A stretch of DNA of 64,000 nt from an uncultured Anaerolineales bacterium (GCA_964575455.1 CAZNRX010000016.1:445-64444); one strand, 5' to 3'; numbered from the stretch's first letter, positions 9 to 49,986 are shown. Program-made: numbers and translations. Notes: generated from the letters alone by a model not told the origin.

Positions 9-620
9 GTGCGGGAGGGTGGTTGGGAGACGTGGGAGCCGATGGGCCTGCTGGGCGCTCAGGTGTGGGGAGCGACGCTCGGCATCGTCGGACTGGGTCG
101 CATTGGGACCGCCGTGGCGCGCCGCGGGCGTGGCTTCCAGATGCGGGTCCTCTACAATGATCCACACCGGAAGACGGATCTGGAGAAGGAGCTGGGGCTG
201 GCGTACGCCTCGCTCGATGAGTTGCTGGGTACAGCGGACTTCGTCAGCGTCCACACGCCCCTGGTGCCGGAGACCCATCACCTGATCGATGCGGCGGCGC
301 TGCGGCGCATGAAGCCGGAGGCCATCTTGATCAACGCCGCGCGCGGTGAGATCGTCGACACGGAGGCGTTGGTGCAGGCGCTGAAGGAGGGCTGGATCGC
401 CAGAGCGGCTTTGGACGTGACGGATCCCGAACCCATGCCGGCCGATCATCCCCTGGTCGGCCTGCCGAACTGCATCATCGTGCCGCACATCGGCAGCGCC
501 ACAATCCATGCCCGCGAGCGCATGGCGGAGATGGCGGCGGAGAACCTGCTGGCCGGGCTGCGCGGTGAGCGTCTTCCCTATTGCGCCAATCCGGAGGTCT
601 ACGGGGAGATGGGCCGATGA
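9..620 (+). CDS. D-isomer-specific 2-hydroxyacid dehydrogenase (glyoxylate/hydroxypyruvate reductase-like), C-terminal part; 5' end lies outside the window
   Basis: ORF runs from the window edge. It has the NAD-binding Rossmann motif [12 protein letters not shown], the catalytic-region motif IVPHIG and a typical GhrA/2-HADH C-terminus. Its stop overlaps the next start (ATGA). Confidence 0.8.
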
Positions 621-1030: not shown

Positions 1031-1041
1031 GCATCTTGTGA

Positions 1042-1139
1042 GACTTCCGAAGTCTTCGTTGCAGCGCTTCAGTGTGTCGGGCGCTCCTATGGGCAGGCCC
1101 AACTGGGTCTCATAGGCCACATACTAGACTTCGGAAGTC
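1042..1139. terminator. convergent intergenic region with nested inverted repeats; probable bidirectional terminator
   Basis: GACTTCCGAAGTC (1042-1054) and its exact reverse complement GACTTCGGAAGTC (1127-1139) flank an inner CCTATGGG...CTCATAGG repeat. The region lies between convergent genes. Confidence 0.35.
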
Positions 1140-1167
1140 CTTGAATGCCGAAACTGACGTTGTATTA

Positions 1168-2490
1168 CTAGAGCCGTTCATCCATGCCGATGGGCATCAT
1201 GACCATGCCGCTGATGACTTTGGGATAGAAGTCGGTCGACTTCTGCGGCATCTTCTCCCCGGCGGCGGTGCAGGCACGAACCTGCTCCATGCGAGTCGGG
1301 TTCAGGACGAAGAGGAACTCCGCCTCACCCTCGTCGACGGCGGCGTACCCCATCTGCGGGTCGCGCAGGTACTCGATGTTCTCCTTGCGCTCCACGGCTT
1401 CCTTGCTGATGTCCATCACGCGCTCGATGAGGAGTTCGTGTAGTACGCTGACGTCGAGCATGCGCCAGGCGGGGTCGCGGCCCGGCAGCAGTCGATCCAT
1501 CACGCCCGGGTCCTTGAGCTCCAGAACGGTGTGTCCGCCGTTGTAGAACCCGAAACGAGGATGGGCCGGCGTGGCCTCGTCCAGGGCCGCCTCAAGGTCC
1601 TCCCGGCTGTCGACAGGGATCAGACTGAAGGTCTCCTTGGCCTCCTCCAGGATCTCGGCCGCGCTCATCTTGCCGTAGGAGTGGATCAGGCGGTGGGTGG
1701 GCAGGATCACCAGGCCGGGGTCCTGCATGCTGACCATCGTCACCATGCGGAAGTTGAACCCAGCGTTGTCCGGAGCGTCGGGATGCTGCTCCCGCATCTC
1801 GTCGCGGTAGTTGAGGGCTGTCTCGTAGCGGTGATGGCCGTCGGCGATGATCAGGTTTCGCCTGGGCGCCATTTCCTCCAGGACGGCCTCGACGATCTCC
1901 GCGTCGGTCACGGGCCAGAACTGCTGTAGAACGTCCTTCTCAAAGAGCTCGCGGGCCTCAAGGCCCTCCGTCCTCTCGACGACTTCGTTCAACAGCTCGT
2001 TGATGCGATCGCCGGGGTAGAGCATGAAGATGTGCCCGAAATTGACCTCCGTCGCCCGCATAAGATTGAGGCGGTCGACCTTCGGCCCGGAATGCGTGCG
2101 CTCGTGGGGAAGGACGATGCCCTCGTCGAACGTGCTCAGCTGGAACGCGGTGACCAGGCCCTGGCGGCTCTTCTCCGTGCCGTCTGGCAGGGTGAAGCTC
2201 TGGCGCAGCACGTAGAGCGCCGGCTGATCCTCGCGCATCAGCACGCCCTGGTTCAGCCAGGTGGCGTAGTAGTCTCGGGCGCGGGTGTAGACGTTGTCGT
2301 CGTCGCTGTCCTCCGGCGTCTCCTTGCCCTTGATGATGCGCACGACGTTGTGGGGGCTCTGGTCGTAGTACTTATCCTGGAGCCCGTGGCGCACGCGGTC
2401 GTAGGGCTGGCTGATGACGCGAGAGAGGTCCTCGACCCTGTCCGGGTCGTATCGAGTGCCTCGGAAAGGTTTGATGGTTGCCATACTCAC
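1168..2490 (-). CDS. DUF1015 family protein (conserved hypothetical, COG4198-like)
   Basis: About 440 aa with N-terminus MATIKPFRGTRYDP, characteristic of DUF1015. Its start overlaps the upstream dehydrogenase stop (ATGA), indicating co-transcription. Confidence 0.65.
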   Translation of the reverse strand: MSMATIKPFRGTRYDPDRVEDLSRVISQPYDRVRHGLQDKYYDQSPHNVVRIIKGKETPEDSDDDNVYTRARDYYATWLNQGVLMREDQPALYVLRQSFTLPDGTEKSRQGLVTAFQLSTFDEGIVLPHERTHSGPKVDRLNLMRATEVNFGHIFMLYPGDRINELLNEVVERTEGLEARELFEKDVLQQFWPVTDAEIVEAVLEEMAPRRNLIIADGHHRYETALNYRDEMREQHPDAPDNAGFNFRMVTMVSMQDPGLVILPTHRLIHSYGKMSAAEILEEAKETFSLIPVDSREDLEAALDEATPAHPRFGFYNGGHTVLELKDPGVMDRLLPGRDPAWRMLDVSVLHELLIERVMDISKEAVERKENIEYLRDPQMGYAAVDEGEAEFLFVLNPTRMEQVRACTAAGEKMPQKSTDFYPKVISGMVMMPIGMDERL

Positions 2491-3392
2491 CCCCTGTTGG
2501 CGATCTCGATGGCGATGCTGGCCGTCTCCTCGCCGACGCGCGCCTTGGCCTCGACGGTGCCGGCGCCGATGTGGGGCGAGCCGATCACCTCAGGCCGCTC
2601 CATCAGCTTCTGACCACGCTCCTCGGCCTCGTCCTCGTAGACGTCTAGCGCGGCGCCGGCGACCTTGCCGCTCTCGATGGCCGCCAGCAGGGCGTCCTCG
2701 TCCAATGTGCCGCCGCGCCCGCAGTTGACGATCTTGACGCCATCCTGCATCTTGGCGAACTCCTCCTCGCCGATGAGGTAGTGCGTGGCGGGCGTGTGTG
2801 GGACGTGGAGCGAGATGTAGTCTGAGCGCTCCAGGAGCTCATCCATCGGCACCTGGGTGGCGAAGTCGCACTCGACGTCCGTGCGGCGGTGGAAGAGCAC
2901 CTCCATGCCGAGGGCGTTCGCCTTCTCGCCCACCAGGCTGCCGATCCGGCCGAAGCCGACCAAGCCCAGGGTCTTGCCGGCCAGCTCGGTGCCCTTGAGC
3001 TTCTTCTTCTCCCACTTCCCCTCTTTCATGGATACCGTGGCCTGAACGATGGGGCGGGCGAGGGCGAAAAGATAGCCAAGGGTCAGCTCGGCGACGGCGT
3101 TTGACGAGGCCGCCGGGGTGTTGCGCACCTCGATGCCGTGCTCCTCGGCGTAGTCGACGTCGATGCTGTCGAGGCCGACGCCAGCACGAATGATGGCCTT
3201 CAGGTTGGTCGCCTTGTCGATGAGGGGCTCGCGGACCTTGGTTCGGCTGCGGACGACCATCGCCTCATATTCGGGAATGATCTCCCCCAGCTCGTCCAGG
3301 GTGACGTCGTCGTTCACGTCGACGTCAACGCCACCCTCGCGCATCGCAGCAACAGCTTCCGGGTCTACCGGGTCGCAGACGATTAGTTTCAT
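2487..3392 (-). CDS. D-isomer 2-hydroxyacid dehydrogenase (short SerA-like D-3-phosphoglycerate dehydrogenase / hydroxypyruvate reductase)
   Basis: Carries GFGRIGSLVGEKANALGMEV (NAD binding) and a catalytic His/Glu region. Start taken at the internal ATG (MKLIVCD), which has an AAGGAG RBS; the annotated ORF extends to 3431 through an AT-rich stretch. Confidence 0.8.
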   Translation of the reverse strand: MKLIVCDPVDPEAVAAMREGGVDVDVNDDVTLDELGEIIPEYEAMVVRSRTKVREPLIDKATNLKAIIRAGVGLDSIDVDYAEEHGIEVRNTPAASSNAVAELTLGYLFALARPIVQATVSMKEGKWEKKKLKGTELAGKTLGLVGFGRIGSLVGEKANALGMEVLFHRRTDVECDFATQVPMDELLERSDYISLHVPHTPATHYLIGEEEFAKMQDGVKIVNCGRGGTLDEDALLAAIESGKVAGAALDVYEDEAEERGQKLMERPEVIGSPHIGAGTVEAKARVGEETASIAIEIANRG

Positions 3393-3451
3393 GGTCTGTC
3401 TCCTTATGTTGAAGATCAAGTTGATATTCATCTTGTGCTCCTGGTACCCAT

Positions 3452-3491
3452 GATCCGCGATCTTGAGCGCGAAGCCGCCGGATCGCGGATC
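3452..3491. other. intercistronic perfect inverted repeat (11 bp arms)
   Basis: GATCCGCGATC ... 18 nt ... GATCGCGGATC lies between the aminotransferase stop and the dehydrogenase start. Confidence 0.4.
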
Positions 3492-3524
3492 CGGCTAGAG
3501 CTTGGGGAGCCACAAGGTGAGTGG

Positions 3525-4592
3525 TTACAGATCCAGGATGTCCTCGATCTGGTCGGTCAGCCACTGCAGGTCGGTGAGCGTCAGGTCGCCCATGTGCGCG
3601 ATGCGGAAGCAATTCTCCTTCAAGGGGCCGTAGCCGTTGGAGATCTGAGCGCCGCGCAGTGCCAGCTCGGCGTTGAGGTCGGCGACGCTGATGCCGCGGG
3701 TGTTCTTCACGTTGGTCACCGTGGGCGACAGGTAGCGCTCGTTGGAGAAGAGGTCGAAGTACTCGCGCGCCCAGTCCTGGACGTACGCTGCCATCTCCTG
3801 GTGGCGCTTCCAGCGGTTCTCCAGCCCCAGCACCATGATGTCGTCCAGCTGGGCATCAAGGGCCTCGATCAAGCTGATGCACGGCGTGGCGCGGGTCTGG
3901 TGTTTCGGGTACTTCTTGTCCATCTGCTCGTAGGAGAAGTAGTAGCCGCCATTGGCGACCTCCAGGGCGCGCTCCCGTGCCCGATCGCTGACGGCGCAGA
4001 CGGTCAGTCCGGGGGGCAGGGCGAAGCATTTCTGGGTGCCGGCCAGGCAGACGTCCAGGCCCCAGGCGTCGAACTCGATCTTGGCCCCGGCCATGCCGCT
4101 GACGGCGTCGACCAGGATCAGCACGTCCGGGTATTTCTCGTGGACAAGGTCAGCGATCTCGTCGACGGGGTTCAGCATACCGGTTGAGGTCTCGTTGAAG
4201 ACCACGGTCAGGGCGTCGTACTCGCCGCTGGAGAGCGCCTCGTCGACGATCTCGGGGGTGATGGGCTGACCCCACTCCGCCTCGACGGTGCCCGTGGGCA
4301 CGCCGTTCGCCTCGCAGACGGTGTGCCAGCGATCTGAGAAAGCGCCGTTGATGGTGTTGAGTATCTTGGTTTTCGTGGCTTGACGGATGGTCCCCTCCAT
4401 CACGCCGGTGGACGATGAGGTGAAGAGGTAGACGCGCTGCTCCGTGTAGAGGAGCTTCTGGAGCTTCTCCGTCACGCCTTTGTGCAGCGTGGAGTACTCC
4501 GGAGCGCGGTGGTGGATGATGGGCGCTGCCTGCGCTTCCAGGATCTCATCGCGAACGTGCGTTGGCCCTGGGGTGAAGAGCTTTCTGTACAT
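3525..4592 (-). CDS. class V (AGXT-family) aminotransferase, either serine-glyoxylate/serine-pyruvate aminotransferase or AGXT-type phosphoserine aminotransferase
   Basis: 355 aa with N-terminus FTPGPT, typical of AGXT/SerC class V enzymes. Strong RBS (CAGGAGG) sits 7 nt upstream of the ATG. Confidence 0.8.
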   Translation of the reverse strand: MYRKLFTPGPTHVRDEILEAQAAPIIHHRAPEYSTLHKGVTEKLQKLLYTEQRVYLFTSSSTGVMEGTIRQATKTKILNTINGAFSDRWHTVCEANGVPTGTVEAEWGQPITPEIVDEALSSGEYDALTVVFNETSTGMLNPVDEIADLVHEKYPDVLILVDAVSGMAGAKIEFDAWGLDVCLAGTQKCFALPPGLTVCAVSDRARERALEVANGGYYFSYEQMDKKYPKHQTRATPCISLIEALDAQLDDIMVLGLENRWKRHQEMAAYVQDWAREYFDLFSNERYLSPTVTNVKNTRGISVADLNAELALRGAQISNGYGPLKENCFRIAHMGDLTLTDLQWLTDQIEDILDL

Positions 4593-4739
4593 CGTGTACC
4601 TCCTGTTCAGTGAATCGAATGTGAAGCTATCGTACCAACTGATAGATCGGCATAGCCTGGCTTGAGGGTTGTGAACACCCTGTCCAGTTGGCCTGAATCG
4701 GTCGCTCTGATCCCTGCGTCACCAGGAGCCCACCTATCG

Positions 4740-4776
4740 AAAAAAGGACGCACAAGCCTATCTGGCTGTGCGTCCT
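4740..4776 (-). terminator. intrinsic terminator serving as the expression platform of the glycine riboswitch
   Basis: On the minus strand, GGACGCACAGCCAGAUAGGCUUGUGCGUCC is followed by a U6 run. Its 5' arm abuts the P1 3' strand (ACAGAG) of aptamer 2. Confidence 0.7.
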
Positions 4777-5000
4777 CTGTCTCCCACCTGAGAGATTCCT
4801 CCCGAGTGATATTTGGGATTGCCCCTTCGGTATCCTTAGCGCGGCCCCAGGTGCTCTTGGAGCTGCTCTCCGGATTTTCCAGAGTGCCGAGGTAAGGGGT
4901 CCGGTGACCTGAGAGTTTCGTCGCCGTAGTCAGCCGGCCACGGCGAGTTGCCCCTTCGGTGTCCGCTTGGAGGCGGCCTCTCCCCCATACCCCAGGGCGG
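4777..5000 (-). promoter_or_regulatory. tandem-aptamer glycine riboswitch
   Basis: Minus-strand RNA contains GGAGAG...CACCGAAGGGGCAA...AAACUCUCAGGUCACCGGAC (aptamer 1) and CUGGA..GGAGAG...UACCGAAGGGGCAA...AAUCUCUCAGGUGGGAGACAGAG (aptamer 2). These match the conserved GGAGAG / CGCCGAAGGAGCAA / CUCUCAGGCAAAAGGACAGAG blocks of the gcvT riboswitch. Confidence 0.7.
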
Positions 5001-5020: not shown

Positions 5021-5049
5021 ATTTTACAGTATCCCTTCTCAAAAGTCAA
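5021..5049 (-). promoter_or_regulatory. sigma70-type promoter for the riboswitch-controlled operon
   Basis: Minus strand reads TTGACT - 17 bp - TAAAAT, about 15 nt upstream of the first aptamer. Confidence 0.45.
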
Positions 5050-5162: not shown

Positions 5163-7913
5163 TCACCTCAACGACGAAAACGATAAGGCGCGGGCGGAGC
5201 CGATGGTGGGATGATTCCTGAAGATGATGGGCAGGAACAGGCGCACCGGGGGGTAGTGAACCAGTACGCCTTCGAGGTCGTATGTCTCCTCGTCCCAGCT
5301 GTCCGTCCGCACCCGGTCGGCCATCTCGGCCACCGAGGCCAACCAGACATCCGGCCGGACGCTGGGCAGGGGTGCGTGAGAGAACCCCCAGGACTCGATG
5401 TGCCACCAGTCATCCGGTTCGGCGTTGGCCGGGTTGTCCGGGAAGCCGCTCTGATAGGTGGCGTTGATGGCCTGGACGTAGGCCAGATCGGGGTTCATGC
5501 GCACCCACAGGCCCGCTGTGTGTCGGAAGCCGTCCCAGGCCTGATGGATGTGGGGCTTCGTGCGCGGCGCCTGGACGTGGTCGGAGCTGGCGAAGACGAG
5601 CATGACCTTCAGGTCGGGCGCCTGGGTGATGAACTTGGGGTAGTTGTGCACGGTGATGCGATAGGGCCACGCCTGCTTTGTCTCGGTGTAGGTCGCCACG
5701 TCCGCGGGCCAAGTCTGGGGCGTCAAAGCGCCGTTGTCCAACAGAGCCTTGGTGAGGGCGCGTGAGTAGTAGCGCTTGTTGTTCCATAACCTAGGTCCCT
5801 TCTGCCCGACGATATACTGAGGGTGCCCATGGCCCGCCGCGAAGTAGGGACGGTCCATGCCACTTGGATCTTCGTACCACCCGACGGTGGAGTAGTCGAC
5901 GGTGACCGTGACAGGGCTGTAGGCCTGTTCCTCGAAGAAGGGGTTGGGAACTGGGTGGTGTTGGTCGTCGAAGTGACCCAGCTCGCAGGCGTACATCTCG
6001 TCACGGGTAGGGTTCTCCCGCCCGATCAGGTACTTGACTCGGGGCAGTTCAGAGCCGTGCTGGGCCAGGACGTTGGTTGCCACTACGCCGGCGTGAGACG
6101 AAGCGAAAAGCCCCACGTTGTCGGTGAGAACGTTCGTCGTGGCGATCAAGTTCTGGATGGTGTTTCCGTCGATGTCGGTCGTCATGCCCGAGGCGAACTT
6201 GATCACGTCGCGCAGGGCTTCCAGGGAACGAGGTCCGCCGTAGTCGTAGACACCCTGGCTGCGCGCGCCCGATGCAAGATCAGTGCGCTCCGGCCAGAGG
6301 TAGGAGACGGTGACAGCGCCGATCTCGGTGGTGTTGTTGACGCGGTGGAAGTCGCTGCCCGGGACGAACCAGGTGGAGGCCTCCACGACGACAGGGGCGC
6401 CCTCGGGGTAGCGCGGTAGCTCGGGGGCCTCGACCCGCACGGCGATGTCGTCTCCTTCGGAGTCGACGTAGGTGATGCGCTCGGCGCCGGGTGGCGCTGG
6501 CACGTTGACGCCCTGGGCCCGATCCGCCATCTGATAGACCGCGGCCAGCTGATAGATCGCCTTGGGGACGTCCGGGGGCAAGCAGTAGAGCTCTGCTCCT
6601 GACCAATCATCGGGCGGTTGGTTGGGGACGCGATTGGGCAGGTCGTCACGGCCAGCTAAGTCGGGATCGCCCTCGATCAGATAGGCGGGGCTGGGGTTGA
6701 TCTGCACCCAGGCACCGTTCTCGCGCCAACCGTCGAAGGCTTGGTGGATGTGCGGTTTGTCGCGTGGCGCTTGGACGTGGTCCCGCACGCCGCAGAGGAC
6801 CATCGCCTCCAGACCTGGCAGATGGGTCAGCGCCTGGTCGTAGAGCCAGACGGATTCCCGGAGGTACCAGTAGACGTTGGCTTGTGCTGGGTTGGCGATG
6901 TCCGAAGGCCAGGTGTCTGTGAAGACGTGTCTGTCGGCCAGGGCCTGAGTGACAGCTCGGGAGTAGACCTCTAATGCGCCGCTGGGATGGGGGAAGGGAT
7001 CGAGGGGGAAGTCCTCATCGAGCTGCAGGACGCCATCTAGGTCGAGGTCAGGCGTTTGCAGGCCCGTGAACGGGTCTGCAACCGTCGTGTACTCGTCATC
7101 GCCGTTACCGTCGTGGAAGATGCGACGCGTGGTGGCGTCTGGATCGTAGGTCAGGTCGTCGTAGGTCACATCCAGGATGCGCCGTCCGTAGTCCACGTAG
7201 CGTGGGTTCATGAAATCGCCTTGGTGGGGATGGCCCGGTTCCAGCACGATGCGGCCCAGGTCGCGCGTGGCTGCCTGGCTGGAGACGGGGGTCTCCCACT
7301 GGATGACGTAACGCAGATGTCCGGCAAGGTCCTGCCCGTGCTGGGCGGCCACGGCGACGACGATGTTGCCGCCGTTGGAGACGCCCTCCAGGCCGATGTT
7401 GTCGTGCAGCACGGGTACGGGCACGATCTCATCAATGGAGCGTCCTTGGCTGTCGGACAGCTCGCCGGCGGCGTAGAGGATGACGTCTCGCATGGCAGCG
7501 ATGGAACGAACACCGCGGTAGTCGTAGGTCCCGTCGGAACTGAGTCCAGCCGCCGTATCTTCCCCACCGGGGAATAGGAAGCTGATGATGATCACGCCAT
7601 CCGTCTCGGGCGGCAGGCCGTGGCTAATGCCTTTGGCTTCGTAGCCCCCGGCTCCCCAGATGAGCACAGGCGCCCCCTGTGGATATCTGGCGTGGCCAGC
7701 CCTGGGGGTATGGACTCGGACAGCCAGCGTGCCAGTGGGGCTGCCCGTGCTTGGCGATGGGAGTCTCACGTCTAGGGGCGTGGCAGGAGCGGGGGAGGCG
7801 CGAGGGGGCGGTGCTGCGGCCAGGCTAAGGCTGAGCAGCAGAGCCGAGCCGAGCATGGCGACGCCAAATGAGAGCGCCCGTCTGCAGGAGACGGAACGGT
7901 GCATTGGGGACAT
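5163..7913 (-). CDS. secreted protein with two tandem alpha/beta-hydrolase-like domains (putative esterase/peptidase; function unknown)
   Basis: N-terminal signal peptide. Internal duplication of about 400 aa (RYPQGAPVLIWGAGG.../RYPEGAPVVV...; HVQAPRDKPHIHQAFDGW/HVQAPRTKPHIHQAWDGF). GVSNGG nucleophile elbow (GxSxG) in repeat 1, degenerate ASSHAG in repeat 2. Confidence 0.65.
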   Translation of the reverse strand: MSPMHRSVSCRRALSFGVAMLGSALLLSLSLAAAPPPRASPAPATPLDVRLPSPSTGSPTGTLAVRVHTPRAGHARYPQGAPVLIWGAGGYEAKGISHGLPPETDGVIIISFLFPGGEDTAAGLSSDGTYDYRGVRSIAAMRDVILYAAGELSDSQGRSIDEIVPVPVLHDNIGLEGVSNGGNIVVAVAAQHGQDLAGHLRYVIQWETPVSSQAATRDLGRIVLEPGHPHQGDFMNPRYVDYGRRILDVTYDDLTYDPDATTRRIFHDGNGDDEYTTVADPFTGLQTPDLDLDGVLQLDEDFPLDPFPHPSGALEVYSRAVTQALADRHVFTDTWPSDIANPAQANVYWYLRESVWLYDQALTHLPGLEAMVLCGVRDHVQAPRDKPHIHQAFDGWRENGAWVQINPSPAYLIEGDPDLAGRDDLPNRVPNQPPDDWSGAELYCLPPDVPKAIYQLAAVYQMADRAQGVNVPAPPGAERITYVDSEGDDIAVRVEAPELPRYPEGAPVVVEASTWFVPGSDFHRVNNTTEIGAVTVSYLWPERTDLASGARSQGVYDYGGPRSLEALRDVIKFASGMTTDIDGNTIQNLIATTNVLTDNVGLFASSHAGVVATNVLAQHGSELPRVKYLIGRENPTRDEMYACELGHFDDQHHPVPNPFFEEQAYSPVTVTVDYSTVGWYEDPSGMDRPYFAAGHGHPQYIVGQKGPRLWNNKRYYSRALTKALLDNGALTPQTWPADVATYTETKQAWPYRITVHNYPKFITQAPDLKVMLVFASSDHVQAPRTKPHIHQAWDGFRHTAGLWVRMNPDLAYVQAINATYQSGFPDNPANAEPDDWWHIESWGFSHAPLPSVRPDVWLASVAEMADRVRTDSWDEETYDLEGVLVHYPPVRLFLPIIFRNHPTIGSARALSFSSLR

Positions 7914-7951
7914 GGCGCGATGATCCTCCTGTCACTAGACTGGTTCAGGCT

Positions 7952-10087
7952 TTATTCCGAGGCGCGATAGGTCTCGATCAGCTCTGGCATGGTCTGCCAG
8001 ACGATGTCTCCTCGGTCGACGTACTCTTGCAGGCCTTCGAAGAAACCGTGCAGCAGTTGTTCGTCGATGGCCTGTCCGAAGCTCCACACGAAGAAGAAGG
8101 CGTTGATTTGGCCTGGTGCACGGGCTGCCAGGGCATCCTCAATGAGCTCGAGCGCGACATCCACATCCTCTTCGGTCATATCGTTGTGAGTGTGGGAACC
8201 GGACGCGAGCTTGGCCTCGTGGAGGCCGTGGATGGTGCCCACCGTGGGGACGATCAGCAGCCCGTTGTCGGCCGGCGTGGTCCAACTGCTGCCATCCGCG
8301 GCTCGCCAGGGATGGAGGGCCGCCGGGAAATCCCCTGGGTACGGGTCGTGACACATCCCATCACCGGGGCCCTCACAGGCCTGGATTTCCGGCGGCTGCT
8401 GCTCACCTGGGAGGGAGCGGAGGCAGTAGTTGACGATGCCAGACGTGGCCTGGATACCCACCTGACGGGCGGCGGTGACCCAGTCCAACTCGGAGCAGAT
8501 GCCGGACGCATGAACAACAGGGATGCCCATCGCTTCCATGTCGGCGCGCAGCTGGCGCAGCTGGGAGGTGAATGCCTCCTGGCCTCCGGATAGCCGGGGG
8601 TTGCCACCCAGATCGGCGTGGATGCCGACACCGTCCCCGCGCTTGTACAGCTCCTTCAGCACGTTCGGCTCGAAGGTGGCGCTGGGACCAATCAGGTTGG
8701 AGGTCTCCCAGGTGATGGGCATGTCGTACGCATTGGCCAGATTGGAGTAGGCCAAGATGCGCTCGCTGTATCGCTCGTATACCTCCTGGTTGTACCCGGT
8801 CAGGCTGTTCCCGAGCGGATAGCCCTCCAGGTGGACGGACAAGCCCACGTAGAGAGGGGGCATCTCGCTCGGCTTCGAAACCGGTGGTTGATCCTGCGCG
8901 GCGTAGGGCGGCTCGACGCCCTCGAGGAAGAAGATGTTGGGGCGAGCGTCGAAGTCCCGACGCCAGATGTCGACGGCCTCTGAGTAGGTGACGTAGGTTG
9001 CTCGGCCGGATTCAATCAAGGGCTTCAGCTGATCCAGCAGAGCCAGCAACTCCTGATGGCGCTGGAGGTCGAAGATGATGCTCTGCGGCACCGCGATCGA
9101 GGCGGTGTACATCTTGTCTCGGTCGATGGTCCCTTCCTCGAGTTGGTCCGCCGCCGTTTGCACGAACTCCGGGGTGGATCGCCAGCCTCTCTCGGCGCTC
9201 CAGTTGCCGTGCTCACCTGGGCCCACGTAGATCAAGGAGCCCTCGGCGTCGTGGCTCCAGAAGCTCTGGCCGGCTCCCTTGGGCCTCCAGATGCCGCTGG
9301 CGAGGTCATCCTTGCTGAAGTCCCCCAGGTGATGGTCGTGGCTGACGGCCAGGGTCAGGATCTTGGGATGCCAGGTGAAGTCGGGGTAGATCCATCCCGC
9401 CTCGCCCTGTGAGAGTCGGGCGAACTGGTCGGGCGCGTCCCAGACGAAGCCGCCGACGTTCTCACTGATGGACGGCGTGACCTGCTCGCCCAGGAAGCGG
9501 ATGTCGGCGTAGTTGTCCTGACCCTCCTCCCATCCTCCCTCCTGGTGAGGGTCGATTTCGAAGCCGTAGTGGGTGGATAGGTAGTCGATCACGTTCTGAC
9601 CGGCGGTGGCTGCCCGCATGGCGTCCGTCTCGCACGCCGATACCCCCTGGAAGAACTCGTACTCGACCTGCAGGTTGACGGCCGCTCCATGATTCGACAC
9701 GGCCTCTGCGAACTGGAGCAGCTTCTGCCGGAAACCAGGGTAGGCATCGCAGTTGGTGTAGACGGGCACGTCCTCGATGTGGCCGGCAACCGTCACGTAG
9801 ACGGGTGGGAGAGGCGCAGCCTCGCCCGCGGGTGTGGCAGCTTCGGCGGGCGCGCCGCAATCCTCGGGACAGGTCTCGGCATTCTCCGGCCCGTCGCACA
9901 CACCATCGCCGCAGCGCCTCTCGCTTTCCTCTTCTGTCTCCTTGGGCGGCGGCTGAGAGGGCGTGGATGTGGGCGCAATGACGGGCGTAGGGCTCGGCTC
10001 CGGGATAGGGAGCACGGACGCGACCTGGCACGCTGTGAGGGCGCACAAGGCCAGCAGGGCGACGGTCATCTTGGAAACACGGTACAT
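7952..10087 (-). CDS. secreted lipoprotein with Cys-rich CGDGVCDGPENAETCPEDCG module; function unknown
   Basis: Lipobox LTAC, then Pro/Thr/Ser linker, then a compact Cys-rich module followed by about 600 aa of unrecognised domains. Start may be the internal ATG (MTVALL). Confidence 0.6.
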   Translation of the reverse strand: MYRVSKMTVALLALCALTACQVASVLPIPEPSPTPVIAPTSTPSQPPPKETEEESERRCGDGVCDGPENAETCPEDCGAPAEAATPAGEAAPLPPVYVTVAGHIEDVPVYTNCDAYPGFRQKLLQFAEAVSNHGAAVNLQVEYEFFQGVSACETDAMRAATAGQNVIDYLSTHYGFEIDPHQEGGWEEGQDNYADIRFLGEQVTPSISENVGGFVWDAPDQFARLSQGEAGWIYPDFTWHPKILTLAVSHDHHLGDFSKDDLASGIWRPKGAGQSFWSHDAEGSLIYVGPGEHGNWSAERGWRSTPEFVQTAADQLEEGTIDRDKMYTASIAVPQSIIFDLQRHQELLALLDQLKPLIESGRATYVTYSEAVDIWRRDFDARPNIFFLEGVEPPYAAQDQPPVSKPSEMPPLYVGLSVHLEGYPLGNSLTGYNQEVYERYSERILAYSNLANAYDMPITWETSNLIGPSATFEPNVLKELYKRGDGVGIHADLGGNPRLSGGQEAFTSQLRQLRADMEAMGIPVVHASGICSELDWVTAARQVGIQATSGIVNYCLRSLPGEQQPPEIQACEGPGDGMCHDPYPGDFPAALHPWRAADGSSWTTPADNGLLIVPTVGTIHGLHEAKLASGSHTHNDMTEEDVDVALELIEDALAARAPGQINAFFFVWSFGQAIDEQLLHGFFEGLQEYVDRGDIVWQTMPELIETYRASE

Positions 10088-30590: not shown

Positions 30591-33500
30591 TCCGCGCGTG
30601 GAGGATCGGGCACGTCAACTGGCCGAGAGGCATAAAGCCACGCGCGGTTCTGGCGTCTCGACCCGAGGGCCCGGGCTAGACCGCCTGTCGACCGATTTGC
30701 TGAAGCGTCTCCCCGTGATCGAGCGGGTGCTCCGCGAGGCCTACACGGGCTTTGCCAGCGATGCCTTTGGCAGCGCGGTGCCCGAGGAACGGGGTACCCT
30801 GTCGGGCGTGGCCGAATGGGTCCTGGACAACTACTATGTGATCCAGAAGGCGATCCGGCAGATTGGGGAGAACATGCCGCGGGGCTACTACCGCCGGCTC
30901 CCCAAGCTCGTCGGCACAGACGACCGCTCACCCTTGAGCGGTTACCCTCGGGTGTACGCTGTGGCCCGAGAGATCATCCGCATCGCAGAAGGCCAGGTCG
31001 ACGTCGACCGCGTGCGGCGCTTCATCCGCGCATATCAGGAGGTCCGGCCCCTGACCATGGGGGAAATCTGGGCCCTGCCGACGATGCTGCGCCTGAGCCT
31101 GGTGGAGCTTCTGGCGTGGACCGTTGGTGGCGCAGCAGGGCTTGAGATCCCCATCAATGAGGAGCCGTTTCCCGGGCCAGTGGAGCTCGAGAACAAAGGC
31201 GACGAGGCCATCGTGGCCGGCGTCATCAACAGCTTGCGCGCCATTGACGACCACGAATGGGATGACTTCTTCGAGGCCACGAGCCTGGTGGAGGAGACGC
31301 TTCGCCTGGACCCTGCAGACGTCTACCCAGAGATGGACTTCGACAGCCGCGATCGCTACCGCGGCGTGGTCGAGAAGCTGGCGCGGGAGACGGATCAGTC
31401 CGAGCAGGAGGTGGCGCGAGCGGCGCTCCGCCTAGCCCGGAGACGGGCCGCCCGTCCTCGGGCCGCCCGCCCTCGGGCCGAGCACGTCGGTTTCTATCTG
31501 GTGGGCCGCGGGCGGGCGCAGCTTGAGGAGGCTGTCGGCTTTCGACCGGGGCTGTTGGAGCAGGCGCGCCGCTGGGTGTTCGGGCACCCCACACCGGTCT
31601 ATCTCGGCAGCATCGCCGTCATAACCGGGCTCGTCTTGGCCGGGGTACTGCTGTACGCGCACGGTGCTGCCGGGGGTGGGCAGCCCGCGGTCGGGCTGGG
31701 GGCTCTGGCGGCCGTCGCGCTGCTGACCCTTCTGCCGGCGTCGATTGTGGGCGTCAACCTCACAAACATGGTCATCACGCGCGCGGTGCCGCCGCGGGTG
31801 TTGCCCAAGCTCGATTTCAGCGACGGGATACCTGCTGACTATCGTACGATGGTCGTGATCCCGGCCCTGTTGAGCAGCGACGACGAGGTGGACTTCCTGC
31901 TGCGGCAGCTGGAGCTGCACTACCAGGGGAACGCTGACCCTCAGCTGGGGTTTGCGCTTCTGAGTGACTTCGCTGACGCGCCACAGAAACAGATGCCAGA
32001 GGATGAGCACCTGCTGCAGCGGGCCAGGGAGGGCATTCGACGCCTCAATCGCACGTACGGCAAGGGGGGGCGTGCTGAGGGTGCTGAGGGGCCGTTTCCA
32101 CCGCGAGAGACTCTGGAATCCCAAGGAGTCGTGCTGGATGGGGTGGGAGCGGAAGCGCGGCAAGCTGGTCGAGTTCAACCGCCTGCTGCGAGGCGAGCAT
32201 GAGACGTCGTACGTGGTGAAGATGGGCAATCTCGATTTCCTCCCCGAGGTGACGTACGTGATCACCCTGGATGCGGACACGGTCTTCCCACTGGACAGCG
32301 GGCATCGGTTGGTTGGCACCATGGCCCATCCACTGAATCAGGCTGAGTTCGACGCAGATGGAGCGGGCGGCCCGACAACGGGCGGCCCGACAACGGGCGG
32401 CCCGTATTCGGGCTATACGGTCCTCCAGCCGCGGACGGAGGTCAAGCCCACGGCAGTCACCCGCACCTGGTTCAGCAGGATCTTCGCGGGCGATGCAGGT
32501 CTGGATCTCTACACGCGCGCTGTCTCCGACGTCTATCAGGACTTCTTCGGTGAGGGGATCTACATCGGTAAGGGCATCTACGATGTGGATGCCTTTGAGC
32601 GCAGCCTGCGTGGGCGGGTGCCTGAGAACGCCCTGCTGAGTCACGACCTCTTCGAGGGCATCCACGGTCGGGCTGCCCTGGTGACGGACGTGGTGCTCTT
32701 TGAGGACTACCCCCCGACCTATCTGAGCTATGCACACCGAAAGCACCGTTGGGTGCGGGGTGACTGGCAGATTCTGCCCTGGCTCTTCCCGAGGGTGCCT
32801 CACGCCGGTGAAGGGACGATTCCCAACCCGCTCTCGGTTCTCGATCGCTGGAAGAGCTTCGACAACCTGCGGCGCAGCTTGCGCGCGCCCGCGCTCTTCG
32901 CCTTGCTCGTGGCCGGCTGGGTCTGCCTGCCTGGGTCGCCGCTGGTCTGGACGCTGATCGCGGTGGTGGCGTCTGGGCTGCCACTGGTCACGGGTGCGGT
33001 CACGGAGATGGCACGCCGTCTGGGAGGCGGACAGTCAGCTCCGGCCTCGTCGACGTTCTGGGAGCGGATGGGAAAGGAGGCTGCGCGCTGGCTGCTGAGC
33101 ATCGTATTCTTGCCCTACGAGTCGATTCTGATGGGCGACGCCGTTGTGACCACGCTGGTGCGTCTAACGATCAGCCGCAAGCGACTGCTGCAGTGGACGA
33201 CGGCCGCTCACACTGTGCGTCTCTTTGGGCGTGAGTCGAAGATAAAGTTGCTCTGGCAGGAGATGAGCGGTGGGCCGGTCCTGGGGCTCATGGTCGCGGT
33301 CGCGCTGGCCTTGTTCCGGCCCATGGTACTGCCCCTCGCTGCGCCGTTCCTTCTGTGCTGGCTGGTCTCCCCTCTGGTGGCGGCCCGCATCAGCCAGCCG
33401 GTGGAGGAAGAGGAGGCGTCGCTTTCCGGCGCTGAGCGTCGACGGCTGCGGCTTCTGGCCCGCCGCACGTGGCTGTATTTTGAGCGCTTCGTCGGCCCGG

Positions 33501-36500
33501 ACGATCATTGGCTGCCCCCCGATCATTTCCAGGAGGAGCCGCAGGGGAGGGTGGCGCACCGCACGTCCCCAACCAACATCGGACTGATGCTCCTCTCCTC
33601 TCTCGCTGCCTATGATCTGGGCTACATCGGGCTGATGGAGCTGTCGCTCCGCACGAGCGATGCCTTTGACAGCATGGATGAGCTTGAGAGGTACCGGGGC
33701 CACCTGCTGAACTGGTACGACACCAGAACCCTGGATTCGCTGGCCCCGCGCTACGTCTCCACGGTGGACAGCGGGAACCTGGCGGCGTGTCTGATTGCGC
33801 TTGGGCAGGGGCTGGAGCAGCTGGAGCAGGAGCGCATCCTGCGCTGGCAGCGTTGGCGAGGGCTGTGCGATGCGTTGGATGTGTTGAAGCAGATCATCAG
33901 GGCCGCGGAGCAGGGGGTGGACGCTGCTGCTCAGGAGGAGATTGAGCGTGCAGCCGCGGATCTGAGTCAATGGATCGACCGGATGCGCGAGAGGGTGCTC
34001 GCTGTGAGGGAGGAGCAGGAGCGTTGGATCCCTCTGCTCGCGGAGCTTGAAGAGGAGGTCGCCGAAGGCCTCAACCGACGGCTCCAGGCGCTGCTCGATG
34101 CAGGCTCAGGGATCCTGGGCACTGCGACCCTGCGCGATCTCCGGCTCTGGTCGGAGAGGCTTCACCTGCATCTGCGTGACTTGCGCAAGGGTATAGAGAG
34201 AGCTCTGCCCTGGGTCTTCCTGCTGAACGATCCCCCGCAGGTTCTCGTCAGTGAGCGATCCGAGGAGCTGACCCCAGCTATCGCTGAGGCGTGGCGAGGG
34301 ATTGAGGAGGCGCTGCCGCTCGATCCGCGCCTGGGGGAGATAAGCGCCGTCTGTCGCAGGGCTCGAGAGGAGCTGGAGGAGCTCCGGCAGCTGCTGAAGG
34401 AGGAGCTTGCGTCGCTGGACAGGGAGCAAGAGCCCGATCTCGTCGGTCAGCTGAAGGACGCCCTTGATTGGTCCGAGGAGCTGGATCAAGCCCTGGCGTC
34501 GGCCCGGATGACGGCTGGCGGCATGATGATCGGCCTTGACGATCTGATACAGCGGGCTGAGGCCTACGTTGACGACATGGCTTTCGGCTTCCTGTACGAT
34601 GATCGCCGGGACGTGTTCCACATTGGCTACCAGGTGGACAGCGAACAGCTGGATCGCAATCACTACGACCTGCTTGCTTCGGAGGCGCGCATTGCGAGCA
34701 TCGTGGCCATCAGCAAGCGGGAGGTCCCACAGGGCCACTGGCTGCACCTGAACCGTCCTCTTTCTCGCGTCGACGGGCTGCGCACGCTGCTCTCGTGGGG
34801 CGGGTCGATGTTCGAGTACCTGATGCCGGACCTGATGATGCGCAGGTATGAGGAGACGCTGCTCAACCAGGCGAACCGGGCCGCCGTGCGTCGCCAGATC
34901 GCCTATGGAGATGAGAAGGGCGTCCCCTGGGGGGTCTCCGAGTCGGGTTACTATCGTTTTGATGCGCAGCTGAACTACCAGTACCGGGGATTTGGCGTGC
35001 CCGGCCTGGGGCGGAAGCGAGGGCTGGGCGACGATCTGGTGATCGCCCCGTACGCCTCGCTGCTGGCCGTGGACGTGGCGCCGGAGGAGGTGTTGGAGAA
35101 CATCGACCTGCTGATTGAGCAGGGAATGCAGGGCCACTATGGTTTGTACGAAGCGCTGGACTACACAGCGTCGCGCCTGCCGATGGGGCAGAGGCGGGCC
35201 ATTGTGCGCTCCTACATGGCCCACCATCAAGGAATGATCATGGTGGCTCTATCTAACTACCTCAACGACCACGACATTGTGAATCGATTCCATCACGATC
35301 CCCGCATTCAGAGCGTGGAGTTCTTGCTTCAGGAACAGGTCCCCGGCCAGGCTCCGCTTGAGGAGGTGCCGGAGGAAAGCGTGGGCATCGAGCGGCTGCA
35401 GCGCGAGCGGGTGGAGCTTGAGCCCTGGTCCGTGCCAACCGACGCTCCCATGCCTCAGGTTCACTTCCTGTCCAACGGTCGCTACGGCTCGCTGATCACA
35501 GAGGCTGGCGCTGGCTACAGCACCTACTCTCCCAGGCGATCGGGCGCGGGGGAGACGGTGGCCCTGACCCGTTGGCGGGCGGACACCACGCGCGACTGCT
35601 GGGGGACGTGGATCTACGTGCAGGACCTGCACATGCAGGATCTGCACATGCAGGATCTGCACATGCAGGATCTGCACATGCAGGATCTGGAGGGCGGTCG
35701 CCCCGGTGAATCAGGCCTGTGGTCCGTGACCGAGCAGCCGACCCATGCGCGTGCGGACGACCAGCTGGCCCGGTTCTATCCCCATCGGGCCGAGTTCCGG
35801 CGGCGGTATGGCGATATCACCCTGCACACGGAGATCGTCGTGGCGCCGGAGGAGGACGTCGAGATTCGGCGCGTCAGCCTGATGAATCACGGCGATGAGG
35901 CTCGGCGTCTGCGGGTCAGCAGCTACGCGGAGGTGGCGCTCGCGGCTCAAGACAGAGACCGGCGACATCCGGCGTTCAACAAGATGTTCATCGAGAGCGA
36001 GCGTCTGTCGGAGGTCAACGCGCTTCTGTTCAAGCGGCGTCCTCGCTCAGCGAGCGACTCGCGTGGATCCGCCATAAGAAGAGTAAGCGAAGCGGCAGCT
36101 GGAGAGCCGTTGTGCATGGCTCATATGCTCGTCACGGCGCCCGGCATGGAGGACACAGGCGCCCACGAGAGCGACCGGGCGCAGTTCATCGGGCGCGGGC
36201 GCACGGCGCGCGAGCCAGCGGCCTTTCGCCGGAGGTACGACGGGCCGCCTGAGGCCGAGTGGTTGTCCGGAACAACGGGAGCTACCCTGGATCCGGTCAT
36301 GGCCTTGGGCCAAGACGTCGAGGTAGAGCCTCACGCGACGGTCGAGCTCGCCTATCTGACGCTGGCTGCGGAGTCGCGGGAGGATGCGATTGCCTTGGCT
36401 CGCCGGTATCAGTCCTGGACGCGCATCGACCGGGCGTTCGATCAGGCCCACGCGCAGAGTGAGTTGGAGCTGCGTAACCTGGATCTCGAGGTCTCTGACG

Positions 36501-39500: not shown

Positions 39501-39505
39501 GCTAG
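30571..39505 (+). CDS. cyclic beta-1,2-glucan synthase (Cgs/NdvB-like: N-terminal domain, TM region, GT84 glycosyltransferase, GH94 phosphorylase-like domain), with frameshift at a G7 tract (32064-32070)
   Basis: ORF 30571..32202 and ORF 31964..39505 are consecutive parts of one Cgs homolog (GT84 signatures YVITLDADT, LSHDLFEG, RWVRGDWQ; GH94-like C-terminal two-thirds). The frames switch at the GGGGGGG homopolymer; one fewer G gives the continuous reading ..RLNRTYGKGGVLRVLRGRFHRERLWNPKESCWMGWERKRGKL. Confidence 0.75.
35621..35690 (+). repeat. 15 bp in-frame microsatellite (CAGGAYCTGCACATG)x4.6 encoding (QDLHM)n
   Basis: Perfect tandem copies inside the glucan synthase CDS. Confidence 0.85.
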
Positions 39506-48786: not shown

Positions 48787-49986
48787 TTGCTACTCTCTCG
48801 ATCTGAGCTTGAGGATCTGACGCAGACGTACGACCAATGGCACGTCTCGATCTACATGCCCACCTATAGAGCGGGGGATGAGATTCGGCAGAACGCGATA
48901 CGCTTCAAGAACCTGCTCAATCAGGCGGAGGAGCAGCTGGTCGAGGGGGGCATGCGGCGGCCGGAGGCGCAGGAGCTGCTCTCTCCGGGGCGGGCGCTGG
49001 CCGAGGATGAGATATTCTGGCAGCGGCGGAGCGATGGGCTGGCTGTGTTCCTCGCGGAGGATATGACGCGCAAGTACCGGCTGCCCTTGGACTTCGAGGA
49101 CTTGTTGGTGGTCGGCGGCCGCTTCCACGTCAAGCCGCTGCTATCGGTGCTGAGCAACAACGGCCGGTTCTACGTCCTGGCCTTGAGCCAGCACGAGACC
49201 CGGCTGCTTCAAGGAACGCGTCACCGCATTGGCGAGATCGATCTGGACGACGAAGAGCGGGTGCCGGAATCGATCGTCGAGATCCTGAAGTGGGAGGATC
49301 CGGAGAAGCGGCTGCAGGCTCACACAGGTACCGAGGCGGTTATCGACGGGGGCGTGGTGGTCATTTTCCACGGCCACGGGGTGGCAAGCCAGGACGACCC
49401 TGACGATAAGATTCTGCGCTACTTCCAACGTTTGGACCTGGGGGTCGCTGACCTGCTGGCGGACGACGATGCCCCCCTGGTCCTGGCGGGGGATGGTTTC
49501 CTGCTGCCGCTCTACCGTGAGGCGAACAGCTATCCGCACCTGGCGCAGGAGGGCATCGCCAAACAGCCGGACGAATTGAGCGCCGAAGAGCTGCACCGGG
49601 AGGCCTGGTCCATCGTCCGTTCGACCTTCTCCCAGGCCCAGGAGCGGGCCGAGGAGACGTACCACCATCTTTCTGGCACGGAGAGCGAGCGGGTGGCGCG
49701 CGACGTTGAGGAGGTTGTGCGAGCGGCCGCCTTCGGGCGCGTAGAGGGGCTCTTCGTCGCCAGGGACGAGCAGCGGTGGGGGGCTTTCGACGAGGAGACG
49801 AGCGCGGTCGAGCTGCACGAGGAGCAGCAGCCGGGCGATCAGGACCTTCTCGACGTCGCGGCTGTTCAGACGATGCTTCATGAGGGTTGGCTCTTCGTGG
49901 TCGACGGCCAGGATGTGCCGCGGGACGACGAGCAAAGCGGCCTGGGCGCCCGCGAGCATTCACTGGCCGCTGTGCTTCGGTGGTGA
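48787..49986 (+). CDS. hypothetical protein
   Basis: 399 aa soluble acidic protein with no motif I can name. Confidence 0.55.
   Translation: MLLSRSELEDLTQTYDQWHVSIYMPTYRAGDEIRQNAIRFKNLLNQAEEQLVEGGMRRPEAQELLSPGRALAEDEIFWQRRSDGLAVFLAEDMTRKYRLPLDFEDLLVVGGRFHVKPLLSVLSNNGRFYVLALSQHETRLLQGTRHRIGEIDLDDEERVPESIVEILKWEDPEKRLQAHTGTEAVIDGGVVVIFHGHGVASQDDPDDKILRYFQRLDLGVADLLADDDAPLVLAGDGFLLPLYREANSYPHLAQEGIAKQPDELSAEELHREAWSIVRSTFSQAQERAEETYHHLSGTESERVARDVEEVVRAAAFGRVEGLFVARDEQRWGAFDEETSAVELHEEQQPGDQDLLDVAAVQTMLHEGWLFVVDGQDVPRDDEQSGLGAREHSLAAVLRW

Follow-up and report, generated by a model that had tools for sequence, protein, structure and literature searches.

A tandem glycine riboswitch precedes three consecutive minus-strand open reading frames (ORFs) at positions 1168-4592 of a 64,000-nt stretch of DNA from an uncultured Anaerolineales bacterium. 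The whole stretch is referred to here as the window; all coordinates and features refer to it, and the genes of interest lie on its minus strand. The ORFs encode, in order, an aminotransferase, a dehydrogenase, and a protein of the DUF1015 family, also named SerBK. They probably constitute a single transcription unit with a sigma-70-like promoter, and their products would link 3-phosphoglycerate and serine through a short SerA, an AGXT-like SerC, and SerBK. What is shown comprises the genes present, their family and fold relationships, the conservation of their order, and the riboswitch together with the helices that compete in it. The gene trio and the function proposed for DUF1015 are already in the literature, and the new feature is the glycine riboswitch upstream. 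A glycine riboswitch before serC-serA-serBK was not found in the literature searched, which did not extend to the gene-association supplement of Torgerson.

The dehydrogenase ORF was listed as 3431..2487, and its real start is the ATG at 3392 (MKLIVCDP), which follows the Shine-Dalgarno (SD) sequence AAGGAGA and yields a protein of 301 amino acids. For DUF1015, the listed ORF (2490..1168) began at a GTG; translation really starts at the ATG at 2484, which yields a protein of 438 amino acids. The shorter starts were adopted because homolog lengths and independent gene calls agree. Almost all of the best 120 database homologs of the DUF1015 protein are 438 amino acids long, and the independent JGI gene calls on locus L161 (DUF1015 99% identical) give 355, 301, and 438 amino acids with the last two genes 2 nt apart. 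The closest homologs come from metagenome-assembled genomes of Anaerolineae/Chloroflexota. An ATGA start/stop overlap at 2487-2490 had been described in the initial annotation, but the minus strand reads GTGA at 2490..2487, and the junction is TGA (2489..2487)-GT-ATG (2484), with a gap of 2 nt and the DUF1015 start after the stop codon. An AGGGGG SD for DUF1015 lies inside the last codons of the dehydrogenase gene. As read from the sequence, the junction is still tightly coupled, in a termination-reinitiation layout. The three genes are predicted to form one transcription unit, in agreement with the operon originally proposed.

The DUF1015 protein matches PF06245 over its full length (E 4.7e-88, profile positions 1-325 of 325), and the family comprises 9917 related clusters at 50% identity. 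Residues D215-G-H-H-R219, H127, E128, K415, T417, and K422 are invariant among 42 diverse DUF1015 sequences that include the window protein. The AlphaFold2 model of the protein, obtained from 42 diverse sequences, has a mean pLDDT of 96 and a pTM of 0.92. When this model was compared with the PDB using Foldseek, nine significant matches were obtained, and all are to the free serine kinases SerK or SbnI (E 1.5e-7 to 1.9e-4, probability 1.00). The entries are Thermococcus kodakarensis SerK in five ligand states (5x0b/e/g/j/k), the Pyrococcus furiosus homolog 1vk1, and SbnI (5uje, 5ujd, and 6nr6), with TM values of 0.46-0.60 on target length and 9-12% identity. The tenth match has an E value of 3e-3 and a probability of 0.11. 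A profile of the 42 diverse proteins also ranks SerK first among PDB sequences, and it aligns IADGHHRYE with SerK IVDGHHRWA (65-75) and PQKSTdF with SerK SPKTTR (218-224). A single-sequence PDB search with the DUF1015 protein alone returned only noise, and the profile and fold searches were needed. The model points to a SerK-like ParB-fold nucleotide-binding core that is enlarged by ~200 residues. The most likely activity of SerBK is the transfer of phosphate between serine and a nucleotide (serine <-> O-phosphoserine), in place of the phosphatase SerB.

Many bacteria and archaea are without a recognizable phosphoserine phosphatase, and DUF1015/SerBK is the current candidate to fill this gap. 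DUF1015 had been annotated in the window as having no assigned function, which is out of date: the family was put forward in 2018 (Hofmann 2018) as the missing SerB of Clostridioides difficile and was named SerBK in the GapMind 2026 preprint, the authors of which suggest a reversible serine kinase (bioRxiv 10.1101/2024.10.14.618325). A high-confidence SerB candidate is missing in 47 of the 50 sampled genomes with a serA-linked DUF1015, the Clostridium botulinum protein CBO1128 rescues an Escherichia coli serB mutant, and Bacteroides thetaiotaomicron BT1151 is required for the use of L-serine as a nitrogen source (bioRxiv 10.1101/2024.10.14.618325). The remote structural likeness to SerK/SbnI is already in the same preprint (bioRxiv 10.1101/2024.10.14.618325). 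In T. kodakarensis, SerK serves both the assimilation of serine and the synthesis of cysteine by way of phosphoserine (PMC5120207). The window adds little to the identity of the DUF1015 family, which is already published. The earlier proposal that the protein acts on a serine-pathway intermediate agrees well with the SerK/SbnI-like fold, with serine kinases as the only significant PDB matches, and with the complementation of serB by CBO1128. A HAD-type (haloacid dehalogenase) SerB was not found among 20 large window ORFs scanned, one of which encodes an inositol monophosphatase family protein.

The dehydrogenase matches Pfam 2-Hacid_dh (E 4e-31) and 2-Hacid_dh_C (E 4e-56). The best 20 PDB relatives are all D-3-phosphoglycerate dehydrogenases (PGDHs), with E values from 8e-71 to 1e-49, including human PHGDH 6plf (8e-71) and the Pyrococcus horikoshii enzyme 1wwk (9e-69). 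Glyoxylate/hydroxypyruvate reductases appear at 1e-47 or worse, and the D-glycerate dehydrogenase 1gdh appears at 4e-35. The best NCBIfam model is that for PGDH, TIGR01327 (E 9e-97, model positions 1-298 of 525), and the GhrB model gives 155 bits against a cut-off of 492. The protein is best described as a putative short-form PGDH, with a substrate specificity that is suggested by these relatives. The hydroxypyruvate/glyoxylate reductase identity assigned initially is not upheld by these comparisons.

The aminotransferase matches Pfam Aminotran_5 (PF00266, E 1.6e-24), and the pyridoxal phosphate-lysine motif GTQK is read in its translation (...LAGTQKCF...). The nearest PDB structure is the uncharacterized P. 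horikoshii protein 2dr1 (1.6e-66), far nearer than the serine-glyoxylate aminotransferase (SGAT) 6pk1 (6e-34), the identity proposed at first, or canonical SerC (1e-27). AGXT-like aminotransferases of PF00266 encoded beside serA have been named SerC2 and SerC3, and they resemble the characterized phosphoserine aminotransferase P74281 of Synechocystis (PMC9026213). Mutation of SerC2 makes Staphylococcus aureus auxotrophic for serine, and the serC defect of E. coli is complemented by SerC3 of C. botulinum (bioRxiv 10.1101/2024.10.14.618325). Gene context and these reports suggest that the window enzyme is a phosphoserine aminotransferase of the SerC2/SerC3 kind.

Gene neighborhoods were compared in two sets of loci, the best 80 GTDB species-representative loci for a diverse DUF1015 alignment and 80 metagenome contigs retrieved with the window aminotransferase. 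In the GTDB set, homologs of the aminotransferase and PGDH are found immediately upstream of DUF1015, in the same order and on the same strand, at 8 of the 80 loci. These belong to Chloroflexota (L001, L004, L005, and L006), Thermotogae (L012), Aenigmatarchaeota (L027), Thermoplasmatota (L061), and Bipolaricaulota (L074), and the three-gene order spans five phyla of bacteria and archaea. At L003 a PGDH gene is just downstream, and at L032 (Brocadiia) an aminotransferase gene is just downstream of DUF1015. Among ~800 flanking genes, PGDH-like matches are all at position -1 or +1 except for a weak match of 31% identity at L051. The adjacency of DUF1015 and PGDH is far from random. The three-gene order also holds in the related metagenome contigs (80 contigs) wherever length allows. 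Recurrence of the order aminotransferase-dehydrogenase-DUF1015 in five phyla and in almost every related contig of sufficient length supports the linkage on which the initial annotation relied. The linkage of DUF1015 to serA/serC is strong where present and is not universal.

The glycine riboswitch lies between the promoter and the aminotransferase gene (Table 1), and the co-regulation by glycine suggested earlier is supported by an RF00504 aptamer (52 bits) followed by a second aptamer. The promoter motif TTGAC(A/T)...TGTA(G/A)AAT is found at the equivalent place in related leaders. In a pattern scan of both strands of 161 loci and the window, glycine aptamers were detected only before this operon, plus L005. 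They are present in ~27 contigs with an aminotransferase that is at least 72% identical to that of the window. An intrinsic terminator follows the second aptamer. It was missed by a consensus terminator scan owing to a bulged U and was detected by RNA folding.

The 5' arm of the terminator contains the 3' strand of aptamer-2 P1 at its base and the pseudoknot partner CAGCC (4768..4764) at its top. The layout of most leaders is the aptamer-2 P1 3' strand (CAGAGG or CAGGGG), then ACGCA-CAGCC, a loop, the 3' arm, and a U-tract. Across 26 leaders, 90.8% of cells are paired in the terminator stem with the P1 3' strand counted in, versus 36-73% for slid controls. One position of the P1 strand, which is A or G, shows covariation with its stem partner (pair 92-129): 10 sequences have AU and 7 have GC. 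From the stem pairing and the covariation it follows, therefore, that P1 and the base of the terminator are mutually exclusive. The five pairs between the conserved GGCUG loop of aptamer-1 P3b and CAGCC are formed in 95.2% of cells in the 26 leaders, versus 14-51% when slid, and one of these pairs is GC in 20 sequences, AU in 2, and UA in 1. The L096 pseudoknot has a different but complementary pair of strands, GACCGG/CCGGUC. When the P1 and P5 segments were blocked in constrained folds, the terminator was lost in the window, L081, L086, L092, and L099. A comparison of loop-to-tail complementarity with shuffled loops was uninformative, since 5-bp matches occurred in 755 of 1000 shuffles (one locus parsed).

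At ~3740-3880 of L104 there is only one aptamer, which looks as though a deletion had joined the 5' half of the first aptamer to the 3' half of the second; complementarity is retained between its P3b loop (ACUGG) and the terminator arm (CCAGU). The leader segment between the terminator and the start codon of the aminotransferase gene is kept only in the closest relatives (L081-L087). Within it, a long-range helix (GGUAGAU..GC / GC..AUCUAUC) is possible and a short helix touches the SD, with weak covariation in 7 sequences.

The window riboswitch appears on balance to be a glycine-ON switch, because the ligand-stabilized P1 and the P5 pseudoknot would both sequester the 5' arm of the terminator. 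In tandem glycine riboswitches, the P5 pseudoknot joins the P3b loop of aptamer 1 to the region just after the P1 of aptamer 2 (Torgerson 2020, PMC7161355). It is present in 87-99% of ON switches, is missing from all OFF (alsT) switches, and is usually exclusive with an alternative helix (PMC7161355). Aptamer-2 P1 is the antiterminator in the ON switch of Bacillus subtilis (PMC7161355).

Several observations weigh against a glycine-induced operon of serine and phosphoserine enzymes. No NCBIfam equivalog cut-off is reached by any of the three proteins. The dehydrogenase scores 325 bits against the cut-off of 454 for TIGR01327, because the ASB/ACT regulatory domains are absent. For the aminotransferase, the best model is BhcA (188 versus 650), and serC_3 gives 51 bits against a cut-off of 401. 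About 70 of the 80 best GTDB loci are without serA or serC within 6 kb, including many Terriglobia and Oscillospirales-type Clostridia. A 34-nt insertion in P2 keeps aptamer 2 of the window at 25 bits, under the RF00504 gathering score of 32 bits; the L005 homolog reaches 33.4 bits, and aptamer 2 is conserved in 26 related leaders. With regard to the sign of the switch, the overlap of P1 of the window lineage (CUCUG/CAGAG) with the terminator amounts to only about four pairs, most of them weak. The assignment of an ON switch leans on the pseudoknot because this overlap is small. Covariation in the pseudoknot is thin, with 3 compensatory cells. In addition, the aptamers, the pseudoknot, and the hairpin are retained in three relatives (L090, L111, and L152), in which an anti-SD sequence takes the place of the U-tract (~3890-4003; L152 ~3885-4003). 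In these relatives the end of the hairpin 3' arm, GCGCCUCCU, matches the extended SD AGGAGGCGU in a complementary stretch of 9-10 bp. The same competition between helices predicts that the anti-SD would be freed in the presence of glycine, giving a glycine-OFF switch. On folding, the unpaired probability of the SD decreases from 0.23 to 0.00 in L111 and is 0.00 in both states in L090 and L152. These three relatives may invert the sign of the switch or use another mechanism.

The main alternative is that the same enzymes function biosynthetically, from 3-phosphoglycerate to serine, with SerBK in place of SerB and with repression by glycine (OFF), because serine hydroxymethyltransferase (SHMT) and the glycine cleavage system turn glycine into serine. 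Glycine repression of a serine-biosynthesis operon makes physiological sense too, and such feedback logic is plausible. GapMind places the family in serine synthesis, in line with the rescue of the serB mutant described above, and the anti-SD of L090, L111, and L152 would be freed to pair with the SD. We nevertheless judge this alternative unlikely for the window. The window and ~23 related leaders have the 5' arm of the terminator sequestered by P1 and the pseudoknot, which is the topology of an ON switch, and both P3b and the P5 pseudoknot are reported to characterize ON switches and to be absent from OFF switches (PMC7161355). The SerBK kinase reaction run backwards is thermodynamically unfavorable, with K ~4e-4 (bioRxiv 10.1101/2024.10.14.618325).

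From the evidence above we infer which substrates the enzymes prefer, the sign of the regulation, and the direction in which flux passes through the glycine-induced operon. In the absence of glycine, the strong terminator would form. In the presence of glycine, aptamer-2 P1 and the GGCUG/CAGCC pseudoknot would hold both ends of the terminator 5' arm, and transcription would read through. At high glycine, serine would be formed by SHMT and the glycine cleavage system while the riboswitch is open. SerBK would phosphorylate serine to phosphoserine, the aminotransferase would convert phosphoserine to 3-phosphohydroxypyruvate, and the dehydrogenase would reduce 3-phosphohydroxypyruvate to 3-phosphoglycerate. 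A trio that contains a kinase runs most naturally from serine to 3-phosphoglycerate. If the switch is indeed ON, flux through the operon in this Anaerolineae lineage is mainly catabolic, from glycine to 3-phosphoglycerate. We tentatively propose that the glycine-induced serC-serA-serBK operon constitutes a "reverse phosphoserine pathway" that returns glycine/serine carbon to 3-phosphoglycerate at the cost of one phosphoryl transfer, and that a sister lineage was rewired to an anti-SD platform of opposite sign.

The reaction of SerBK may be that of a phosphatase or of a reversible kinase. A ligand-sensing RNA of known specificity before the operon is a clean natural test of its physiological direction. 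If the proposal is true, it would provide the first natural regulatory evidence for DUF1015/SerBK as a serine kinase in vivo, and the platform of opposite sign in L090, L111, and L152 would match the proposed two-way use of SerBK. A glycine-ON switch, if true, would support a catabolic kinase role and would extend the known glycine riboswitch regulon beyond genes for glycine cleavage and transport.

Table 1. Predicted features of the operon, its leader, and its 3' flank.
Feature	Position	Strand	Basis
Sigma-70-like promoter TTGACT-17-TAAAAT, ~25 nt upstream of aptamer 1	5021..5049	(-)	10/12 matches
Glycine riboswitch aptamer 1 with P3b stem-loop, loop GGCUG 4935..4931	4887..4995	(-)	RF00504 52 bits, E 8e-8
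Glycine riboswitch aptamer 2, P1 CUCUG/CAGAG, 34-nt insertion in P2	4776..4883	(-)	RF00504 25 bits, E 0.014 (801-nt search)
Intrinsic terminator, stem AGAGGACGCACAGCC / GGCUUGUGCGUCCUUU then U6 tract	4740..4778	(-)	-25 kcal/mol, z = -6.5
147-nt leader, terminator to start codon, SD GGAGG 4601..4597	4593..4739	(-)	no Rfam match
Class-V (AGXT-like) aminotransferase, 355 aa, putative phosphoserine aminotransferase (SerC2/SerC3 kind)	3525..4592	(-)	PF00266, PDB matches, literature
Perfect 11-bp hairpin without U-tract	3452..3491	(-)	inverted repeat 3452-3462/3481-3491
Putative short-form D-3-phosphoglycerate dehydrogenase (SerA-like), 301 aa, without ACT/ASB domains	2487..3392	(-)	Pfam, NCBIfam, PDB matches
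DUF1015/SerBK, 438 aa, SerK/SbnI-like ParB-fold core, invariant DGHHR (215-219) and K415-x-T417	1168..2484	(-)	Pfam, model
Large stem, 14-nt perfect arms 1042-1055/1126-1139	1036..1145	between convergent gene ends	-49 kcal/mol, z = -5.8

The initial annotation had also cited a 133 bp junction with an 11 bp-arm hairpin between the first two genes as a sign of the operon. The hairpin is exact (11/11 complementary, loop of 18 nt), while the spacer is 132 nt with the start at ATG 3392, and the hairpin tells little about co-transcription. As RNA it has a folding energy of -28.2 kcal/mol (z = -3.35). It is kept only in the closest relatives L081-L083, and that of L083 carries one compensatory change (GCG>GUG / CGC>CAC). 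Among relatives, the aminotransferase-PGDH spacer ranges from 0 to 304 nt, often with unrelated hairpins or tandem repeats, and the PGDH-DUF1015 spacing ranges from -1 to 2749 nt; this spacing is not conserved, whereas the gene order is. The hairpin was rejected as an operon-defining element on the hypervariability of the spacer, and it is a lineage-specific spacer structure.

It is quite improbable that the genes are adjacent without sharing one transcript, with the hairpin as an internal terminator or processing site and only the first gene under the control of glycine. The stability of the hairpin in the 132-nt spacer would fit this arrangement, but no U-tract follows it, no promoter-like site was found in the spacer, the spacer is 0-30 nt in many relatives with the same gene order, and the PGDH stop and DUF1015 start are 2 nt apart.

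The spacers of other relatives have features of their own. Those of L004, L098, L103, L112, L123, L129, and L131 hold short tandem or palindromic repeats that form long hairpins (for example, GUUACAAGUUGCAA... and ACGUAAUACGUAAUGCGUGA...) and look like lineage-specific intergenic repeat elements. Insertions separate PGDH from DUF1015 in L096, L099, and L146 (860-965 nt) and in L108 (2749 nt).

In 11 Terriglobia loci (L008, L010, L014-L016, L018, L023, L029, L042, L045, and L046), DUF1015 is 3-4 genes from cysK and is not beside serA/serC. The cysteine synthase A matches TIGR01139 with 354.9 bits versus a cut-off of 350.95, and in 7 loci a cystathionine gamma-lyase/synthase gene on the opposite strand is likewise 3-4 genes from the Terriglobia DUF1015. 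This proximity recalls the link from SerK through phosphoserine to cysteine, and it may be simple synteny.

We consider it very improbable that the main role of the window DUF1015 is to provide O-phosphoserine to cysteine synthesis or to some other pathway that consumes phosphoserine, with a secondary link to serA/serC. There are precedents in SerK of Thermococcus and in SbnI of staphyloferrin B synthesis, and the Terriglobia neighborhoods would be in keeping with such a role. Against it, there is no cysteine-synthesis gene in the operon or in the scanned parts of the window, the context in the window is strictly serC-serA, and the Terriglobia genes are on the opposite strand, in one lineage.

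Two plus-strand genes (9-1030) are both convergent with the 3' end of the operon. The first, at 9-620 (+), is cut by the window edge and encodes a glyoxylate-reductase-like 2-hydroxyacid dehydrogenase with glyoxylate reductase as its best NCBIfam match. It had been described as a second 2-hydroxyacid dehydrogenase just upstream, but it lies on the opposite strand at the 3' end of the operon and outside the transcription unit; its convergent orientation led to its rejection as an operon member. The second is an ORF of 137 amino acids without a Pfam or NCBIfam match; its start, ATG 617, overlaps the stop codon of the reductase gene in a true ATGA (617-620), and the two genes are thereby translationally coupled. 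In at least 12 related contigs (57-88% identity) the gene for this protein directly follows DUF1015 in convergent orientation, and the glyoxylate-reductase-like gene is also found in L082, L084, L096, and L161.

The least supported alternative, which we regard as scarcely probable, is a nonphosphorylated serine-cycle module of SGAT or serine-pyruvate aminotransferase with hydroxypyruvate reductase, with glycerate or hydroxypyruvate as the substrate of DUF1015, which could for instance be a new glycerate kinase: the aminotransferase is AGXT-like, the second enzyme is a 2-hydroxyacid dehydrogenase, a glycine-ON switch would fit too, and a glyoxylate-reductase-like gene is next door in conserved synteny, but the dehydrogenase is nearer to PGDHs than to glyoxylate/hydroxypyruvate reductases or glycerate dehydrogenase by ~20 orders of magnitude in E value, the aminotransferase is nearer to 2dr1 than to SGAT and such enzymes beside serA are confirmed phosphoserine aminotransferases, the only structural relatives of DUF1015 phosphorylate free serine, complementation of serB by a family member is unexpected of a glycerate kinase, and the neighboring reductase is convergent and not co-transcribed.

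The large stem at 1036-1145 has the palindromic arms GACTTCCGAAGTCT / AGACTTCGGAAGTC, which are 70 nt apart, and no U-tract follows it on either strand. This stem is a possible marker of the operon's 3' boundary. Upstream of the operon, a minus-strand ORF of 916 amino acids without a Pfam match ends at 5163; this ORF and one of 711 amino acids, also without a Pfam match, occupy 5163-10087 (-), just upstream of the riboswitch promoter. Elsewhere in the window, a baeRF (bacterial archaeo-eukaryotic release factor, families 7/3/6) protein is encoded at 48787-49986 (+), and an ORF of 2513 amino acids is listed at 31964-39505 (+). Genes for glycine/serine metabolism were not found among 20 other large ORFs scanned in the window.

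The operon can be compared with four known systems. SerBK proteins such as CDIF630erm_01132, CBO1128, and BT1151 share with the window protein the same full-length Pfam family, the serC-serA-DUF1015 context, and the SerK/SbnI likeness that was recovered independently here; the comparison with these tested proteins is through the shared Pfam family. The window DUF1015, from an uncultured Anaerolineae-like member of Chloroflexota, is ~36-41% identical to the Clostridia-class homologs sampled. The window operon has a tandem glycine riboswitch, whereas none is mentioned for the SerBK family in the preprint (bioRxiv 10.1101/2024.10.14.618325). SerK (TK0378, 5x0b) and SbnI (S. aureus, 5uje) share the ParB/sulfiredoxin-type core, the DGHHR motif, and a C-terminal K-(S/T)-T with DUF1015, together with the proposed role of moving serine to phosphoserine. 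DUF1015 is larger (438 versus ~240 amino acids), with ~145 extra residues before DGHHR and ~50 more after.

The aminotransferase resembles SerC2/SerC3 (S. aureus SAUSA300_1669, C. botulinum A5I0W7, and Synechocystis P74281) as an AGXT-like member of PF00266 encoded immediately beside serA. This likeness is one of family and context, and the nearest solved structure to the window enzyme is 2dr1. The riboswitch resembles the tandem gcvT switch of B. subtilis in its two aptamers, in the competition of aptamer-2 P1 with a terminator, and in a P5 pseudoknot from the P3b loop. In contrast to gcvT, the window switch precedes serC-serA-serBK rather than glycine cleavage genes, and its P1 overlaps the terminator only at the base of the stem. 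The window pseudoknot is GGCUG/CAGCC instead of polyC/polyG, and its partner strand lies 5 nt after P1, at the loop-proximal top of the terminator arm.

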